This document shows, one piece after another, positions 3,299 through 34,218 of a DNA stretch of 40,029 nt. Every line of letters starts with the position of its first letter. Within the stretch, counting starts at the first letter, position 1. The stretch is from sequence record NC_019721.1; one strand, given 5' to 3'. The position numbers were made by a program, and so were the translations under genes. Below the pieces are notes generated by a model. That model did no database searches. It was not told where the DNA came from and saw only the letters and a list, made by a program, of their open reading frames with translations. This DNA comes from Enterobacteria phage mEp390.

Positions 3299-3976
3299 AT
3301 GCCTGAGATCGTAAAAACGCTGTCCTTCGACGAGACAGAAATCAAATTCACCGGTGACGGTAAACAGGGGATTTTTGAAGGCTACGCCTCTGTTTTTAAT
3401 AACACCGATTCCGATGGCGACATCATTCTGCCCGGGGCGTTTAAAAACGCACTGGCGAACCAGACCCGCAAAGTGGCGATGTTTTTCAACCACAAGACGT
3501 GGGAGCTGCCGGTTGGTAAATGGGACAGCCTGGCAGAAGACGAAAAAGGCCTGTATGTGCGCGGTCAACTTACCCCAGGGCACAGCGGCGCCGCCGACCT
3601 GAAAGCGGCAATGCAGCACGGTACGGTTGAAGGTATGTCGGTTGGCTTTTCCGTTGCGAAAGACGATTACACCATCATTCCAACAGGCCGCATTTTTAAG
3701 AATATCCAGGCTCTGCGCGAAATCAGCGTCTGCACTTTCCCCGCCAACGAACAGGCTGGCATCGCAGCCATGAAAAGTGTCGATGGCATTGAAACGATCC
3801 GTGATGTTGAGAACTGGCTGAGGGATTCAGTCGGCCTCACCAAATCACAGGCAGTAGGGCTAATAGCCCGGTTTAAGTCAGCGATTCGGAGCGAGTCCGA
3901 GGGCGACGGAAACGAAGCACAAATCAACGCTCTGCTTCAGAGCATCAAATCTTTCCCTTCTAATTTAGGTAATTAA
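3299..3976 (+). CDS. prohead protease (HK97 family)
   Basis: HK97-type prohead protease-like sequence; start placed at the ATG preceded by a GGGGG Shine-Dalgarno-like run, alternative start at 3287. Confidence 0.8.
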   Translation: MPEIVKTLSFDETEIKFTGDGKQGIFEGYASVFNNTDSDGDIILPGAFKNALANQTRKVAMFFNHKTWELPVGKWDSLAEDEKGLYVRGQLTPGHSGAADLKAAMQHGTVEGMSVGFSVAKDDYTIIPTGRIFKNIQALREISVCTFPANEQAGIAAMKSVDGIETIRDVENWLRDSVGLTKSQAVGLIARFKSAIRSESEGDGNEAQINALLQSIKSFPSNLGN

Positions 3977-18976: not shown

Positions 18977-18991
18977 TTGCCTGGAGAAAGT

Positions 18992-20326
18992 ATGCTTTAT
19001 AACACTGGCACCATCGCCATTAACGGAAATACCGCCACTGGAACGGGTACGAACTGGACTGCGCCAGCCAGCCAGGTCCGCGCTGGCCAGACGATTATCG
19101 TCATGTCGAGCCCGGTTCAAATTTTCCAGATCTCAAGCGTGGACAGCTCCACCTCGATGACGGTTACGCCATCTGCATCACCGGCGTTAAGCGGCCAGAA
19201 GTATGGAATTCTTGTGTCGGACATTATCTCGGTTGATGGACTGGCACAGGCTATGTCTCAGCTCATCAAAGAATATGACGAGAACATTGGCGCGTGGGAG
19301 ACGTTCGCCACTACCTCAGCAAACCAGACCATCACCGTTACCATCAACGGAACCTCCGTTAATATTCCAAGTATTGGCGCGCTTGCCAGAAAGGGGGCCA
19401 ACAGCGATATCACCGAGCTTAAAGGGCTCACTACTGCGCTTTCTGTTGCACAGGGCGGGACTGGGGCAAAGACCGAAGCTGACGCTCGCACAAACCTCGG
19501 TTTAGGAAGTGCGGCAACTAAAAATACTGGTGAAGGCGATAATAACGTGCTGGCACCAGGATCATTTGGCGTAGGTTCGAAAAACTTGCCAGTAATTGGC
19601 GACATCTGGGATAAAAGCCAGGGAACTCGCTTCTGCAACGTATCTCCTGCCACGTCAGGAGGACCGGGTATGTATGGTTCAGGTATCAGGTTCTCGGACC
19701 GAAATATTGGGAGTGGGGGCACCCCAGCTGCGCAACAATCCTTTGCCGCCCTGATTCTTAGCGGCAAGGTCATTCAATTTATGGGAATGGCTGATGGTAT
19801 CGATACTGGCTGGATGAAGATTTACCACACAGGCAATACGACTCGGACATCTGATGGCACGTTGAAGGCCGCCTCGCCTATAGTTCAATTGTTCGGGGAT
19901 GGGACATGCCAGTTTAACGATGAATCCGAGGGGTGCGCCGTAACCCGCCTGGATATCGGGGAATACCTGATTGAAGGTTGTACCGGCTTGAATGCAGATG
20001 CAGCATGGGGCGGTATAGATGGCGGTTTTGACATTCCTACTGACCGTAACAAACAGCCACTCATCTGGCTTGATTATATGGTTAATTCTGACGGTTCTGT
20101 GCTGGTTAAAACCTATCACCGCACCCACCCGTCGGCCCCTGAATTTGCCAGAAATGAGCGGGCGGGGTTAGCTGATGGAGACCCGGTTGATATCCCGTCA
20201 GATCAGTTCGTCAGCGTTCGAGTAGAAATGCCTGCTAACAGCATATGGAATCAAAAACAGCTGGCTGCTAAAAAAGCTCTCTATGACGCTCATGAATTAG
20301 ATGCCAACGAAGATAGTGGCTCTTGA
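18992..20326 (+). CDS. tail fibre protein
   Basis: about 444 aa from ATG with GGAGAAAG RBS (track ORF starts at upstream TTG 18977); Gly/Thr/Ala-rich N-terminus typical of fibre proteins. Confidence 0.65.
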   Translation: MLYNTGTIAINGNTATGTGTNWTAPASQVRAGQTIIVMSSPVQIFQISSVDSSTSMTVTPSASPALSGQKYGILVSDIISVDGLAQAMSQLIKEYDENIGAWETFATTSANQTITVTINGTSVNIPSIGALARKGANSDITELKGLTTALSVAQGGTGAKTEADARTNLGLGSAATKNTGEGDNNVLAPGSFGVGSKNLPVIGDIWDKSQGTRFCNVSPATSGGPGMYGSGIRFSDRNIGSGGTPAAQQSFAALILSGKVIQFMGMADGIDTGWMKIYHTGNTTRTSDGTLKAASPIVQLFGDGTCQFNDESEGCAVTRLDIGEYLIEGCTGLNADAAWGGIDGGFDIPTDRNKQPLIWLDYMVNSDGSVLVKTYHRTHPSAPEFARNERAGLADGDPVDIPSDQFVSVRVEMPANSIWNQKQLAAKKALYDAHELDANEDSGS

Positions 20327-20360
20327 TAGAGTTGCCGCCCATCGCATGAAAAATGGGCGG
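20324..20360. terminator. 12-bp perfect inverted repeat hairpin between convergent genes
   Basis: GTTGCCGCCCAT-N10-ATGGGCGGCAAC; no clear U-tract. Confidence 0.4.
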
Positions 20361-20395
20361 CAACTGGTTGCTCTGTATTCATGCCCGAGTAAAAT

Positions 20396-20662
20396 TCACA
20401 GGCCAACCTGGCGAACGGTCGGGGACTCAGAAACCAGCCATATGTCGGACTCTTCAAACATTTCTTCCAGCATGCGGTTTAGCTTTTCCCGATCGCTTTT
20501 ACTTGCATCGCTATTCAAGCCGTTCGCCTGCATCGGCTTCACCTTCACTTCGGCATCAGGGAAAATCTGATGAACCCGCTTCGTCAGCTCGGCCAGAATG
20601 ATCTCTCTGGCCCCTTCGAGCCCCGCAACATTACGCTTGTCATATACCAGTTCAACAAACAT
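20396..20662 (-). CDS. dinI: DinI-like DNA damage-inducible protein
   Basis: 88-aa ORF with FPD and ESxDxWLVSE motifs matching DinI as recalled; AGAGGG RBS; LexA box about 45 bp upstream. Confidence 0.8.
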   Translation of the reverse strand: MFVELVYDKRNVAGLEGAREIILAELTKRVHQIFPDAEVKVKPMQANGLNSDASKSDREKLNRMLEEMFEESDIWLVSESPTVRQVGL

Positions 20663-20706
20663 TGCTAACCCTCTTGCCTAACTTGATCTGTAATCACAAA
20701 AATACT

Positions 20707-20724
20707 ACTGTATATGCATACAGT
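20707..20724. promoter_or_regulatory. LexA binding site (SOS box)
   Basis: ACTGTATATGCATACAGT, a perfect 18-bp palindrome of CTGT-N8-ACAG type, between divergent dinI-like gene and ORF 20749. Confidence 0.8.
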
Positions 20725-20748
20725 CAATAGTCCAGAGAGGGCGCTCTT

Positions 20749-20988
20749 ATGCCTCGTCAACTTGATATACGTGCAGCCTTTTTAGCGGCCATACAACAGA
20801 ATCCTAAGGGATATCTTTGTTTGAACACTGACAAATTCATCACTGAATTGCGCTTTAGGAATTGGCATTTCAGCCAGGCAGATGCCAATGCCTGGATTAA
20901 GAGATACCAACCAGACTTTGCTGATAAGACGACGGATGGAAGCGATAACCGTTACTGGATCTTGCGTAATATGGGGAGGGTTTTCTGA
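20749..20988 (+). CDS. hypothetical protein, first gene of putative SOS-controlled operon
   Basis: 79-aa ORF with GAGAGGG RBS, 25 bp downstream of LexA box; stop overlaps next start (ATGA). Confidence 0.5.
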   Translation: MPRQLDIRAAFLAAIQQNPKGYLCLNTDKFITELRFRNWHFSQADANAWIKRYQPDFADKTTDGSDNRYWILRNMGRVF

Positions 20989-21308
20989 TGGGCTTTCCTT
21001 CACCTGCTATGGATTACCAGGAACAGCGGTTAACCATAGATCTGTTATGCGGAATTGATGGGAACTGCAGGGTAATAGAAACATCCTGTGGTTGGGCAGT
21101 GATTAACATTGCTCTAAGGCCAGAGCAGGGAGATACGCTACTGGTAAGAATGGATAACAGGAACGAGTTTGCAAAGCTATACGGGGCGGCATTGATAACT
21201 GAAGATGGTGAAGCGATAGAAGGCGACGCGCTGGATGATGTGGAAGTGTTTGGTGTGCTAACGCATAGTCTTAACCGCGTTTGTAATGATGATTGCCCAG
21301 CCATTTAA
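20988..21308 (+). CDS. UmuD'-like S24-fold protein lacking N-terminal tail and probably the catalytic dyad
   Basis: begins M-GFPSPAMDYQEQR, matching the UmuD segment just after its Cys-Gly cleavage site as recalled; C-terminal VEVFGVLTH resembles UmuD DVFGVVIHV; no SGDSM motif seen. Confidence 0.5.
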   Translation: MGFPSPAMDYQEQRLTIDLLCGIDGNCRVIETSCGWAVINIALRPEQGDTLLVRMDNRNEFAKLYGAALITEDGEAIEGDALDDVEVFGVLTHSLNRVCNDDCPAI

Positions 21309-21367
21309 GGTATGGGTTTAACCACCATTTTCACTTCACCCAAAGTCGATTTACGGTACTAAAAACT

Positions 21368-21651
21368 TTCGCCATTGTGACATTTTGATAACGGTAAGCT
21401 ATTGATTACTTAGATCATAAAATTATGAATTAATGGCGAAAAATAATCGTATATGTTTGATTTTATTAGATAACACGCGTGATTTAAAATCCCTCGGCGT
21501 TCGCGCTGTGTGGGTTCAAGTCCCACTCCGGGTACCATGGGAAAACTAGAATAAAATCAATGATAAGCAGTGTCGTATAAACCACCGAAAGGTGGTTTTT
21601 TATTGTGTTTTTTTCGCCATTCGCCATTGTTTCGCCATTCGACTTCGCCAT
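21368..21651. other. attP region: tRNA-Leu 3' core (21481-21537) flanked by TTCGCCATT arm-type repeats
   Basis: 57 bp matching the anticodon-loop-to-CCA portion of an enterobacterial tRNA-Leu(UAA) as recalled, with no 5' half; TTCGCCATT at 21368, inverted at 21432, four direct copies 21613-21651; integrase adjacent. Confidence 0.65.
21580..21602 (+). terminator. intrinsic terminator downstream of tRNA-like core
   Basis: AACCACC-GAAA-GGTGGTT hairpin followed by T6. Confidence 0.6.
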
Positions 21652-21663
21652 AGAAAGAGGGCA

Positions 21664-22674
21664 TTACTGCCCCCCAACCACCGGTACTACAGATATTTTG
21701 CGGTTGTATCTTGCAGTCTGCGAAGCATTTTTGTGGCCTGATATTTCTTGTTTCTCATGCAGCGTACCTTCCAAATCAGATATCCCTTTGGCTTTCAGGT
21801 CATGGAAAGTAAAGTCAAATTCGATCTCAGGGAATTTCTCAGCGGCTAACTTTTTCGCCTTCATCCACTGCGCATTAAAAGCATCTCGTGTATATCTCGA
21901 TCCTGATGGCTGGTGAATAACATACATGCTAACCATTCCTTCTTTGAGAGGTAAGGAATCAGCCAAGGAGATTGCACGCCTTAAGCGATCGGTCCATTTT
22001 TTGATTTGACTCACTGCTGTCTTACTTTGCTGAATCATGATTCCTTCATGAAGAAGCTGCGTTTTTTTTAGATCAAGAATATCCCCCTGTCTAGCGCAGC
22101 ATAGATAGGCAACCTCCATAGCGATTTTTACAGGAATAGTTGCAATACTGTACAGAGCATCATATTCGTTATCAAAAACGTAACGAGTCCTGGCCTTTTC
22201 TTTAAACTGCTTTACCCCTTGGCAAGGGTTCATCTTCACTTTTCCACGCTCATATGCCCACCTGAATACCCTCGACATAAACGCTTTTTCTCGGTTCGCC
22301 TGAACTCTGCTCTTAACCCCCCTCTTATCCATATACTTTCTGATGTGCTCCGGCTTAATGTTTTCTGGTTTCATTTTGCCGAAAACGACATTTACCTTTG
22401 AACCATATTTCCGGTAATCCTTTCTGGTTTCTGTTGCCAGATCATGAAAGTCACCAGAGTTAAAAAACTCTTCGCAAAGAGCATGAAAGTTGGAACCAAC
22501 CTTTATATCGTTGATGAAGTTTTCATACGCTGCCCAGACCTGAGACTTTGTGAGATCGAGGTTGCACAATCTCACAGTTCTCCCGTCTGGCGTTCTGAAC
22601 TCATAAGCAGATTTGCCTCGACGCACGCGGGGCGGCATCCAGTTATCTTCTGGGTTTTTGCGGATTCTGGGCAT
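21664..22674 (-). CDS. int: tyrosine-type site-specific integrase
   Basis: 336-aa ORF with C-terminal HxxR and RY catalytic-region motifs (HDLKAKG, ARYNRK); adjacent to att core. Confidence 0.88.
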   Translation of the reverse strand: MPRIRKNPEDNWMPPRVRRGKSAYEFRTPDGRTVRLCNLDLTKSQVWAAYENFINDIKVGSNFHALCEEFFNSGDFHDLATETRKDYRKYGSKVNVVFGKMKPENIKPEHIRKYMDKRGVKSRVQANREKAFMSRVFRWAYERGKVKMNPCQGVKQFKEKARTRYVFDNEYDALYSIATIPVKIAMEVAYLCCARQGDILDLKKTQLLHEGIMIQQSKTAVSQIKKWTDRLRRAISLADSLPLKEGMVSMYVIHQPSGSRYTRDAFNAQWMKAKKLAAEKFPEIEFDFTFHDLKAKGISDLEGTLHEKQEISGHKNASQTARYNRKISVVPVVGGQ

Positions 22675-27972: not shown

Positions 27973-28629
27973 TTACAGGTCAGTAACTACTTGTTTTACT
28001 ACACCAACAATTTTGCAGTTACCATTTACTTCCATAACACGATAGTTAGGGTTCAGCGGAACAAGATATTTTAATGGCCCATCAATAACAAACTTTTTGA
28101 GAGTTGCCTCAGCAGAACCGACAATTTGAGCGACAACAATTTTTCCATTTACTTCTTGTGGGCTGCCGTAATCGGGGTCCACCACGACGAATGAGCCTTC
28201 CGGGATACTTGGTGCTCCGTTTGGATTTGTCATCGAGTCACCGCGAACACGTAGTGCAAAACCTTCATCTGATAAGCTGGCCGTAGTGAATATCCATTCG
28301 GAAATATCACCTTCAGTTATTGGAGCTCCACTCTCTGTCCATTCCCCAGCCTGTACCCAAGATAGGATAGGGATTTTCTTTACACCAAACTTCTCAGTCG
28401 GCTTATAAAGAATCTCGTCACAGTCTGGATCACCGTGTCCCGTAATTATCCACTGAGGGTTAGTTTTTAAGGCAGCCGCCAGCCCCTGTAGGTTAGAGCC
28501 ACCAGGTTCATAATCACCAGACTCCCATCCTGTAACCGTTACTCGGTTTACGCCTACCAGCTTGGCGAGAACAGCCTGGGTGAGCTTCAGCTCTTTGCGT
28601 CTTGCGCGGATGCGTTCATTCATTTTCAT
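27973..28629 (-). CDS. cI: CI-like repressor (HTH plus S24 autopeptidase domain)
   Basis: 218-aa ORF with XRE-type HTH (LTQAVLAKLVGVNRVTVTGWE) and S24 motifs (GDSM, later Lys); start codon abuts first operator. Confidence 0.88.
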   Translation of the reverse strand: MKMNERIRARRKELKLTQAVLAKLVGVNRVTVTGWESGDYEPGGSNLQGLAAALKTNPQWIITGHGDPDCDEILYKPTEKFGVKKIPILSWVQAGEWTESGAPITEGDISEWIFTTASLSDEGFALRVRGDSMTNPNGAPSIPEGSFVVVDPDYGSPQEVNGKIVVAQIVGSAEATLKKFVIDGPLKYLVPLNPNYRVMEVNGNCKIVGVVKQVVTDL

Positions 28630-33399: not shown

Positions 33400-34218
33400 T
33401 TATTCAGGGCTTGGGAAAGCGTTTGGTGGCATAAATTGTTGGAGGGCATATCTTATTTGAAGTCTAATGTAGTCCTCTGGAAAATCAGATCGATCTAAAG
33501 ATGATATAATTTCTTCTTCGTTAAATATGCCTGCCTTAATCATTTCATTTATCTTTGTCTTCATGCGCATTAAAATGTCTGTTCTGTTTATCTGGCGCGG
33601 GTATCGGATATTCGCGGAAATTTCACGAGAGTTGCTTTCTAACTCTCTAACTTGATGGGCTAAAATGCGTGTGTTGTTTAAAATTTCAGCCAACATGTCT
33701 TTATCAGTGCGAGCTGGAACGACCTCGTTAGGTTGATTATTGCTGAGGGCTCTACTAAATCCTTCTTCAAATTGAGGCCAGTAAGTTTCAAAAGCCTTTG
33801 CCAGGATATCATCAGGTAATTTACTTTCATCAAGTAATGAATTAATTGTTTTGAGGAGTTTAAAAACGCTATCTTTATTTTGAGTTGTATGGTTGAACTG
33901 AGAAAGTGGTGCTTCTAGGTCTTCAGGTTTTAAATCAATCAAAAATGTACACACTCTATTATCAGGAAGCCCTTTTGTTAGTGCTCCCGTTTCGAAAAGA
34001 ATCCACGGTTTATTTTTGTTTTCTTGAGTCAAGAAAACTACGCCTATTGAGACGTCCTTTAAAATTTCATTAATTTCGGAGAACCAGATTGCACCACGGT
34101 CAATATCTTTAGTTGAAATCCAAGGTTGTGCTGCTTGAATTACGCACTTCAACCATCCATTAAATTCTTCAGCAACAGCTTGGCTACGGTTTCCAGACCA
34201 ACTTAAGAATATTTTCAC
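33400..34218 (-). CDS. TIR-like domain protein with C-terminal helical domain of unknown function
   Basis: 272-aa ORF, GTG start with AAAGAGGT RBS; N-terminus KIFLSWSG...DIDRG..W....I.E.L....VVFLT...W.LFETGAL fits TIR beta-alpha pattern; markedly AT-rich. Confidence 0.55.
   Translation of the reverse strand: MKIFLSWSGNRSQAVAEEFNGWLKCVIQAAQPWISTKDIDRGAIWFSEINEILKDVSIGVVFLTQENKNKPWILFETGALTKGLPDNRVCTFLIDLKPEDLEAPLSQFNHTTQNKDSVFKLLKTINSLLDESKLPDDILAKAFETYWPQFEEGFSRALSNNQPNEVVPARTDKDMLAEILNNTRILAHQVRELESNSREISANIRYPRQINRTDILMRMKTKINEMIKAGIFNEEEIISSLDRSDFPEDYIRLQIRYALQQFMPPNAFPSPE

Follow-up and report, generated by a model that had tools for sequence, protein, structure and literature searches.

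A shortened UmuD′-like protein, coupled to a winged-helix protein, in a predicted LexA-controlled module of Enterobacteria phage mEp390

The genome of Enterobacteria phage mEp390 (sequence record NC_019721.1) carries, between its tail-fibre gene and its integrase gene, a minus-strand dinI-like gene and a divergent plus-strand operon encoding two small proteins of 79 and 106 amino acids (aa), with a single predicted LexA box between them. The question raised by this locus is what such a set of genes could do for a phage, given that the last protein of the operon resembles UmuD′, the processed form of the polymerase V (pol V) subunit UmuD. The window analysed here is the whole stretch of 40,029 nucleotides, which by its gene content is a complete lambdoid temperate phage genome. 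The best explanation of the locus as a whole, to which we give a probability of roughly one half, is that of a LexA-repressed SOS cluster of a temperate lambdoid phage, located between the tail-fibre gene and attP/int and insulated by a hairpin from late transcription. By analogy with the HumD protein of phage P1, and with the same even odds, the derepressed module would supply host UmuC and RecA with a ready-made, non-catalytic surrogate of UmuD′, while its DinI paralogue would tune RecA*.

The 106-aa protein begins with M-GFPSPAMDYQEQR, and its residues 2–14 align with residues 25–37 of UmuD, that is, from the first residue of UmuD′ onwards, as well as with residues 1–14 of HumD. It starts at the post-cleavage glycine (the equivalent of UmuD Gly25) and has neither a pro-segment nor a cleavage site, in agreement with a preliminary description of this DNA, which had placed its start immediately after the UmuD cleavage site. 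The PHROG 3469 profile (“UmuD-like protein”) covers the full length of the protein with an E-value of 1e-47, and the same label is used in GenBank records. The Pfam S24 profile (PF00717) gives no match to it even at E ≤ 1. The NCBIfam HumD model NF051876 reaches 35.2 bits against a cutoff of 120 and covers residues 1–21 only, as does PHROG 811, and a single-sequence search of the PDB matched the N-terminal arm alone. A PADLOC scan returned no match for either the 79-aa or the 106-aa protein. Since hidden Markov model (HMM) and single-sequence searches failed, homology of the body of the 106-aa protein had to come from profile–profile and fold comparison. With hhalign, a profile of 40 members of the short family was aligned with one built from P1 HumD, N15 gp26, phiKO2 gp23, HK140 gp28, two E. 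coli HumD proteins and UmuD′. The two profiles align over 101 columns (1–106 against 1–129) with a probability of 98.95% and an E-value of 1e-17. An AlphaFold2 (AF2) model of the protein has a mean predicted local distance difference test score (pLDDT) of 67, with 70–83 in the core. The top 20 PDB matches found with this model by Foldseek are all UmuD′, UmuD, the C-terminal domain of LexA or that of lambda CI; the best are 1ay9, 8gmt and 1umu, with template modelling (TM) scores of 0.49–0.56, and the probability is 1.00 for the top 11 matches and 0.82–0.99 below them. Judged from these profiles and this model, the 106-aa protein is a full-length but shortened HumD/UmuD′ homologue with the S24 beta-fold, and the earlier UmuD′-like assignment stands despite the missing Pfam S24 match.

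What has been lost includes the catalytic Ser loop. Compared with HumD, the short form is without the segment bearing the catalytic Ser loop and without a second segment before the last strand. In the hhalign alignment, a gap lies opposite the HumD/UmuD segment that carries Ser60; a two-residue turn (S/D-C) between the strands RVIET and GWAVIN is found in place of the Ser loop of about 12 residues, and no Ser is conserved. The Lys-equivalent residue, K63, is K in 92, R in 15 and V or I in three of 110 family members, its register against UmuD K97 shifting by one residue between alignments. The lack of a conserved Ser/Lys dyad, whose absence had been suspected for the mEp390 protein, is a property of the short family. 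Catalysis is dispensable in a protein that is born already processed, and within the 129-aa HumD group the Ser60 column is itself occupied by Thr, Ser or His in different members.

Other parts of the short protein are near-invariant among the 110 members: the arm M1-G-F-P-S-P-A-x-D-Y-x-E12 with the short helix that follows, the residue F61, and V-x-G-V-x-T, which forms the last strand. A motif peculiar to the family and invariant within it comprises N26, E31-T32 and G35-W36-A-V-I (N-C-R-V-I-E-T-x-x-G-W-A-V-I) and is not found in UmuD′. The UmuD residues F26, P29 and F94, of which F94 is a RecA L2-pocket residue, contact RecA (Gao et al., 2023); they correspond to the conserved F3, P6 and F61 of the short family. 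The mEp390 protein is acidic, with an isoelectric point (pI) of 4.09, and its family comprises more than 400 clusters at 90% identity. For both the 79-aa and the 106-aa open reading frame (ORF), the ratio of nonsynonymous to synonymous substitution rates (dN/dS) against homologues is 0.04–0.24 with saturated dS, both being under purifying selection.

The features of the locus, in their order along the window, are as follows.

18977–20326: tail-fibre gene, the last of the head and tail genes (Pfam Phage_tail_C_2).
20330–20365: GC-rich hairpin of 13–14 bp, between the end of the tail-fibre gene (20326) and the 3′ end of dinI.
20396–20662, minus strand: dinI-like gene, 88 aa (Pfam DinI, PHROG 189).
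20683–20711, plus strand: promoter-like site for the two-gene operon, with −35 TTGATC (20683–20688), a 17-nt spacer and −10 TACTGT (20706–20711).
20699–20727, minus strand: promoter-like site for dinI, with −35 TTGACT (20727–20722), a 17-nt spacer and −10 TATTTT (20704–20699).
20706–20725: predicted LexA (SOS) box TACTGTATATGCATACAGTC, common to the two divergent, overlapping promoters.
20749–20988, plus strand: gene for the 79-aa winged-helix protein, first in the operon (PHROG 3893).
20988–21308, plus strand: gene for the 106-aa short HumD/UmuD′-like protein (PHROG 3469).
About 21481–21537, plus strand: attP-like stretch, including a tRNA-Leu-like sequence (3′ part).
21664–22674, minus strand: tyrosine integrase gene.

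The predicted LexA box matches the 20-nt E. coli SOS consensus, TACTGTATATATATACAGTA, at 17 of 20 positions, with mismatches only at the last base and in the centre, where constraint is weak. It is the single occurrence of CTGT-N8-ACAG in the window and the only site there within three mismatches of the 20-nt consensus, while none of 100 shuffled sequences yields any match. It had been described as a perfect palindrome at 20707–20724. The box is present and unique in the window, but its palindrome is limited to two fully complementary 7-nt arms (ACTGTAT/ATACAGT), since the central ATGC is not self-complementary. The box lies 23 nt from the plus-strand ATG (20749) and 43 nt from the dinI ATG (20662), close to the 25 and 45 bp estimated before.

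The surroundings of the box were compared in an upstream alignment of about 42 loci, drawn from E. coli, Enterobacter, Klebsiella and Erwinia phages, from 37 species-representative genomes of at least 12 Enterobacterales genera, and from P1, N15 and phiKO2. A constant design emerges, consisting of TTGAYC, exactly 17 nt, TACTGT-N8-ACAG, and then a GAGG ribosome-binding site (RBS) and the ATG. The TTGAYC-17 nt-TACTGT portion is kept in about 35 of the 42 aligned regions and in at least 12 genera, including upstream of stand-alone short umuD′-like genes and in N15. Upstream of the 79-aa gene, the box is found at 33–44 nt in about 30 of the 37 genomic loci and in all seven phage or prophage loci checked. 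Across loci the CTGT/ACAG arms are constant and the centre of the box varies, as would be expected if LexA made use of the site; binding of LexA to the box and its inducibility by DNA damage are accordingly predicted from sequence. Because the conserved TTGAYC lies exactly 17 nt ahead of it, the left arm TACTGT can be taken as the −10 element of the operon promoter. This promoter (TTGATC-17-TACTGT) scores below the threshold of the consensus scan and is only putatively active. The dinI promoter was found by the consensus scan (9 of 12 matches), with a −35 element that extends into the right arm of the box. CAGTC-AAT and AAAATA, from which this promoter is built, are conserved only in loci that carry dinI. 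As both promoters overlap the single box, one LexA dimer should shut both. The earlier placement of the box between dinI and the operon is correct in that it overlaps both promoters, yet it belongs primarily to the plus-strand operon, being kept in loci without dinI. In Escherichia phage Flotzy (locus L001), a second good SOS box, GACTGTATATGCAAACAGTG, is found at 3729–3748 between the UmuD-like gene and the integrase gene, beside a tiny annotated ORF; it has no counterpart in the window.

The two genes of the operon overlap by ATGA, the start codon of the 106-aa ORF lying on the stop codon of the 79-aa ORF, and a GGGAGGG RBS is located 7–13 nt ahead of the second ATG. A programmed frameshift fusing the two ORFs was considered and rejected on inspection of the sequence. 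No canonical slippery heptamer is present and the second ATG is preceded by an RBS, so that translational coupling is the simpler reading. Directly 3′ of the 106-aa gene, no terminator was found by pattern scan or by folding.

The 79-aa protein belongs to PHROG 3893 (function unknown) and is basic, with a pI of 9.65. The HMM search that had been suggested for it found no Pfam or NCBIfam family, and no relatives were found in the PDB. Its model is confident (pLDDT 89.9, predicted TM score 0.80) and shows a winged helix of the order H-b-H-H-b-b, the structural matches of which are generic winged helices. The family is small, with 156 representatives at 50% identity among 1.84 billion proteins and 155 clusters at 90% identity, and is confined to Enterobacterales-type prophages. 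Its C-terminal half (WHF..DAN.WI.R.Q..FADKT...S.NRYWILRNMGR) is almost invariant. No domain fusions occur among the 156 remote representatives, the few long matches being low-complexity artefacts, and hhalign detects no homology to the N-terminal domain of LexA (probability 0.06%). A tblastn search of 50,697 phage records with the 79-aa protein gave no Salmonella/Gifsy or 186-like match, no pairwise comparison with GfoA or Tum being made. P1 Lxr was considered as a homologue and set aside: lxr is divergent and encodes 190 aa, no P1 appears among the 40 of 45 tblastn matches listed, and the tally names no Punavirus or P1.

The 88-aa product of the minus-strand gene is DinI-like, as first proposed. 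It matches Pfam DinI (PF06183) with an E-value of 1e-21 and 77.4 bits against a cutoff of 24.2, over profile positions 2–63 of 63, and PHROG 189 (“RecA filament binding protein DinI”) with an E-value of 4.5e-21, and it has an acidic C-terminal helix. Against the NCBIfam equivalog PRK10597 it reaches 40.4 bits, below the cutoff of 111, so the gene is not an orthologue of chromosomal dinI. It encodes instead a phage paralogue, like phiKO2 gp22 and HK140 gp26. It is also an optional neighbour, adjoining the module in about nine of the 37 genomic loci.

In about 30 of the 37 genomic loci, the 79-aa gene is followed by an ATGA-overlapping gene whose product starts with MGFPSPA. The product of this downstream gene has 104–107 aa in about 25 loci and 123–129 aa (true HumD) in two; in the rest, the gene is truncated, at a contig end or without the conserved N-terminus. 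More than 30 loci in at least 12 genera agree in the length, the start, the ATGA overlap and the RBS. In HK140 and two E. coli prophages, the 79-aa gene is paired with a 129-aa HumD, which is 71% identical to P1 HumD and matches UmuD′ (1UMU) with an E-value of 3e-22. The short and the 129-aa forms occupy the same slot and are probably interchangeable. DNA similarity between the window and the E. coli prophages with 129-aa HumD extends over dinI, the box, the 79-aa gene and the first 10–13 or so codons of the UmuD′-like gene, and then ends. Because similarity ends there, the region encoding the N-terminal arm appears to be a mosaic junction at which recombination swaps short and long cassettes; the breakpoint within the 106-aa gene lies at 21017–21028 of the window. 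Stand-alone copies of the short form, likewise preceded by a TTGAC-17-TACTGT SOS promoter, are found in phages of Klebsiella and Enterobacter, P22-like ones included (BUCT554, ST11-OXA245phi3.2, Kp4871-1).

The pair is seen to decay on either side. In HK225 (locus L005, 1501–1800), an extended 99-aa homologue of the 79-aa protein is kept, and a DNA invertase is found in the place of the UmuD′-like gene. In E. coli ABWA45 and ECONIH4 (loci L003/L004, 2855–3094), the 79-aa gene is a pseudogene with an internal stop and the downstream gene is intact, encoding a 129-aa S24/HumD-type protein in ABWA45 and a 106-aa short UmuD′-like protein in ECONIH4. Database labels for these proteins vary. In Erwinia phage Midgardsormr38 (locus L007), the 79-aa homologue is entered as “DNA polymerase V” and the short UmuD′-like protein as “repressor protein CI”, and other records call the short form “LexA family transcriptional regulator”, “S24/S26 family peptidase” or “hypothetical protein”.

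Within the phage genome, the module is bounded on its left by the hairpin at 20330–20365, which has a minimum free energy of −28.9 kcal/mol on the plus strand and −26.8 kcal/mol on the minus strand, with z-scores of about −4 on both. It has no T-run and was not called by a pattern scan for terminators. It looks like a bidirectional terminator or insulator between the SOS module and the late operon, and a “putative bidirectional terminator” is annotated at the matching position in phiKO2. A search of 20200–21800 with Rfam at a relaxed threshold found nothing credible. Past the integrase gene follow an excisionase-like DUF4224 gene, genes for a CI-type repressor and a CII-like protein, and replication and lysis genes. 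The closest relatives of the module proteins are found in genomes of the Enterobacter cloacae complex, the closest genomic locus being that of Enterobacter sp. ECC-219, in keeping with a phage of the Enterobacter type; E. coli phages and prophages are about 80% identical at the DNA level.

To the right of the module, the attP-like core contains part of a tRNA-Leu(UAA)-like gene, a 3′ fragment that reaches from the anticodon loop to CCA; no complete tRNA was detected in the window with ARAGORN. This stretch matches 5416 of 5426 E. coli genomes, and in E. coli TST3 yecA is directly adjoined by a prophage that has the same 79-aa/106-aa pair. The core is probably part of leuZ, which lies next to yecA. 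A terminator-like hairpin with a T-run (AAACCACCGAAAGGTGGTTT TTTATTGTGT) is located at 21579–21598 on the plus strand, just past the attP core and upstream of the 3′ end of int. Elsewhere in the window, a 272-aa ORF at 33400–34218 on the minus strand encodes a protein with an N-terminal TIR domain (Pfam TIR_2, E 2e-6), which over its full length strongly matches PDLC03016 (E 1.6e-57), a “TIR-TM” defence candidate of PADLOC. The ORF is a defence-like moron carried by the phage, and the neighbouring genes lie on the other strand.

A module of this kind is already known, since it is annotated in phiKO2, P1 and N15. The P1 record places a LexA site “in the regulatory region of lxr and humD”, that is, in the arrangement lxr ← LexA → humD, and notes that HumD functionally complements E. 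coli UmuD′; such UmuC-dependent substitution has been shown for P1 HumD only. P1 HumD (129 aa), N15 gp26, phiKO2 gp23 and HK140 gp28 are UmuD′ homologues made without the N-terminal 24 residues, like the mEp390 protein. They share with it the arm MGFPSPAxDYVE, the C-terminal DDCPxI tail and an SOS box immediately upstream. Lambdoid and N15-like phages, again as in mEp390, have the UmuD′-like gene after the tail-fibre gene, which in N15 is followed by the gene for the UmuD-like gp26. In phiKO2 (AY374448), the architecture is alike: gp22 (“similar to DinI”) and gp23 (“similar to UmuD”) diverge from a lexA site at which two opposing promoters are annotated, and both the tail genes and the bidirectional terminator precede them. 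Unlike the situation in the window, a 127-aa HumD form directly follows the box, without a 79-aa gene. The mEp390 protein differs from HumD in being 23 residues shorter, in its assignment to a separate PHROG (3469, not 811) and in its own invariant motif, and its gene follows a coupled winged-helix gene, which P1, N15 and phiKO2 lack. This short, dyad-less subfamily and its coupling to a winged-helix gene appear to be undescribed in the literature searched.

E. coli UmuD/UmuD′ (1UMU, 1AY9, 8GMT) is the best structural match to the mEp390 protein (Foldseek E 4.6e-3, TM 0.55). Its gene is LexA-controlled, and the mEp390 gene likewise lies behind a predicted LexA box. The phage protein differs in having no 24-residue pro-segment, no Ser60 and no conserved Lys97, and it is about nine residues shorter than UmuD′; unlike E. 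coli umuD, its gene is not followed by umuC. Prophage SOS modules that combine a DinI homologue with small LexA-controlled proteins are also found in Gifsy-1/2/3, as LexA-controlled dinI-antirepressor-irsA operons outside the immunity region, and in phage 186, where Tum is an antirepressor-DinI fusion (PMC3121763). In those systems, dinI is co-transcribed with the antirepressor and the phage repressor is non-cleavable, whereas in mEp390 dinI is divergent and CI is cleavable. A further likeness, by description, is that of the Acinetobacter UmuDAb–DdrR pair, in which a UmuD-family S24 protein acts jointly with a small protein encoded beside it. UmuDAb is a self-cleaving repressor of full length that includes an N-terminal domain for DNA binding, and its small partner DdrR does not bind DNA and is restricted to Acinetobacter (PMC11332147).

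The repressor of mEp390 bears directly on how the module might act. CI (27973–28629, minus strand) has a helix-turn-helix (HTH) domain and a Peptidase_S24 domain, a VQAG-EW cleavage-site motif, GDSM and LKKF, and matches the lambda CI C-terminal domain with an E-value of 3e-21. By these sequence features it is a canonical self-cleaving repressor, with its AG site, the Ser of GDSM and the Lys of KK.

In a lysogen, one LexA dimer on the single box would occlude both overlapping divergent promoters, and DNA damage, through RecA*-stimulated cleavage of LexA, would derepress the three small proteins. The DinI-like protein would bind the groove of the RecA filament and tune its co-protease activity. 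The basic 79-aa winged-helix protein would be made and, by translational coupling, so would the 106-aa UmuD′ surrogate, without protease function. The latter could dimerise through its retained N-terminal helix and C-terminal strand, and its almost invariant arm (GFPSPAxDYxE) could partner host UmuC and RecA. Like the partnership with UmuC, dimerisation and any interaction with the 79-aa protein are putative. The result would be pol V-like translesion synthesis that need not wait for the slow RecA*-dependent step from UmuD to UmuD′. DinI inhibits the processing of UmuD to UmuD′, and there may be a logic to the pairing, in which DinI would hold back RecA*-dependent UmuD processing while the phage supplies a product that needs none. 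Support for the surrogate reading comes from the filling of the same slot by a genuine protein like P1 HumD, from the near-invariant arm, from the retained RecA-contact residues and from purifying selection.

Several observations weigh against the supply of a UmuD′ surrogate. About 23 residues of the HumD fold are missing, and the HumD model (35 against 120 bits) and the S24 model failed, so that UmuC binding may have been lost; the AF2 model is only moderately confident (pLDDT 67). The family motif absent from UmuD′ (N26, E31-T32, G35-W36-A-V-I) hints at a different partner surface, and the conserved coupling to a winged-helix gene, which has no counterpart in umuDC, P1, N15 or phiKO2, is left unexplained by a pol V model. 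The same short fold would suit a protein that dampens RecA* or pol V, as a decoy in the RecA groove, as the dead partner in a heterodimer with UmuD or UmuD′, or by sequestering UmuC. In concert with DinI, such a protein would postpone the cleavage of CI or restrain mutagenesis, thereby fixing the induction threshold in a prophage with a repressor that is cleavable through RecA*. We regard this, the main rival reading, as possible though doubtful. UmuD, LexA, CI and DinI all bind the same elements of the RecA groove (Gao et al., 2023, for the UmuD contacts), the contact equivalents F3, P6 and F61 are conserved, and a cleavable CI means that RecA* activity directly decides induction. In the window and in about nine of 37 loci, its gene also lies beside dinI and shares its predicted control, but DinI is absent from most loci. 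The slot is, moreover, interchangeable with a genuine HumD resembling the P1 protein known to promote mutagenesis, and the remodelled or deleted region adjoins or includes UmuD Y52 and the residue at 54, which are part of the RecA L2 pocket. A decay of the locus would be another reason for a truncated fold without Pfam matches, the two ORFs then being remnants or chance ORFs. This is excluded by the low dN/dS and by conservation, with an architecture kept in more than 30 loci and at least 12 genera, more than 400 (106-aa) and 155 (79-aa) clusters at 90% identity, and the confident fold of the 79-aa protein.

The winged-helix protein itself could be the key effector, as a LexA-controlled antirepressor or transcription factor comparable to GfoA/GftA, 186 Tum or N15 AntC, which would couple the expression of prophage or host genes to SOS, with the UmuD′-like gene as a passenger. 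It is basic, strongly conserved and of confident winged-helix fold, HK225 retains its gene and has lost the UmuD′-like gene, and LexA-controlled small proteins beside dinI homologues are antirepressors in Gifsy and, in 186 Tum, fused to DinI (PMC3121763). This role is nonetheless improbable. A phage with a self-cleaving CI does not need an antirepressor, tblastn finds no similarity of the 79-aa protein to Salmonella Gifsy phages and it matches no PDB or Pfam family, its near-constant coupling to the UmuD′-like gene, in about 30 of 37 loci, suggests that the two act jointly, and ECONIH4 and ABWA45 keep the downstream gene though the 79-aa gene is a pseudogene. Such a joint function could lie outside pol V, if the 79-aa and the dyad-less 106-aa proteins formed a complex that acts as an uncleavable two-piece regulator like LexA or UmuDAb–DdrR, or as a decoy; we consider a complex of this kind unlikely, and the decoy form, which would bind the RecA* groove or target DNA and, with DinI, retime the host SOS response and the phage's own CI cleavage, no less so. 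The family motif and the translational coupling would be the signatures of this new partnership. In the regulator form, the 79-aa protein would provide the DNA-binding module and the 106-aa protein, associated with it non-covalently, the dimerisation module of a late SOS factor that re-represses selected promoters. The order of a winged-helix gene and an S24-like gene mirrors the domain order of LexA, the two proteins, whose genes are translationally coupled, carry complementary charges (pI 9.65 against 4.09), and DdrR is a precedent for a small protein that binds UmuDAb (PMC11332147). Yet the 79-aa family is unrelated to the LexA N-terminal domain, short UmuD′-like genes occur alone, HumD of P1, N15 and phiKO2 has no such partner, and the 79-aa gene accompanies the short and the 129-aa forms alike and does not co-diverge with them, all of which makes a two-piece LexA very improbable.

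If the short protein does act as a surrogate of UmuD′, prophages that carry it could change the speed or the mutagenicity with which Enterobacter, Klebsiella and E. coli lysogens respond to DNA-damaging antibiotics; with such surrogates, pol V would escape its normal delay at the RecA*-dependent checkpoint. The short form is very widespread and is found in many clinical Enterobacter and Klebsiella prophages. That it is constantly coupled to a winged-helix protein and often paired with a phage DinI suggests that this small module serves to manipulate RecA* or pol V; with three genes each under 90–110 codons and one operator, the module is experimentally tractable. Should the short form inhibit rather than activate, it would be a natural anti-SOS or anti-mutagenesis factor.

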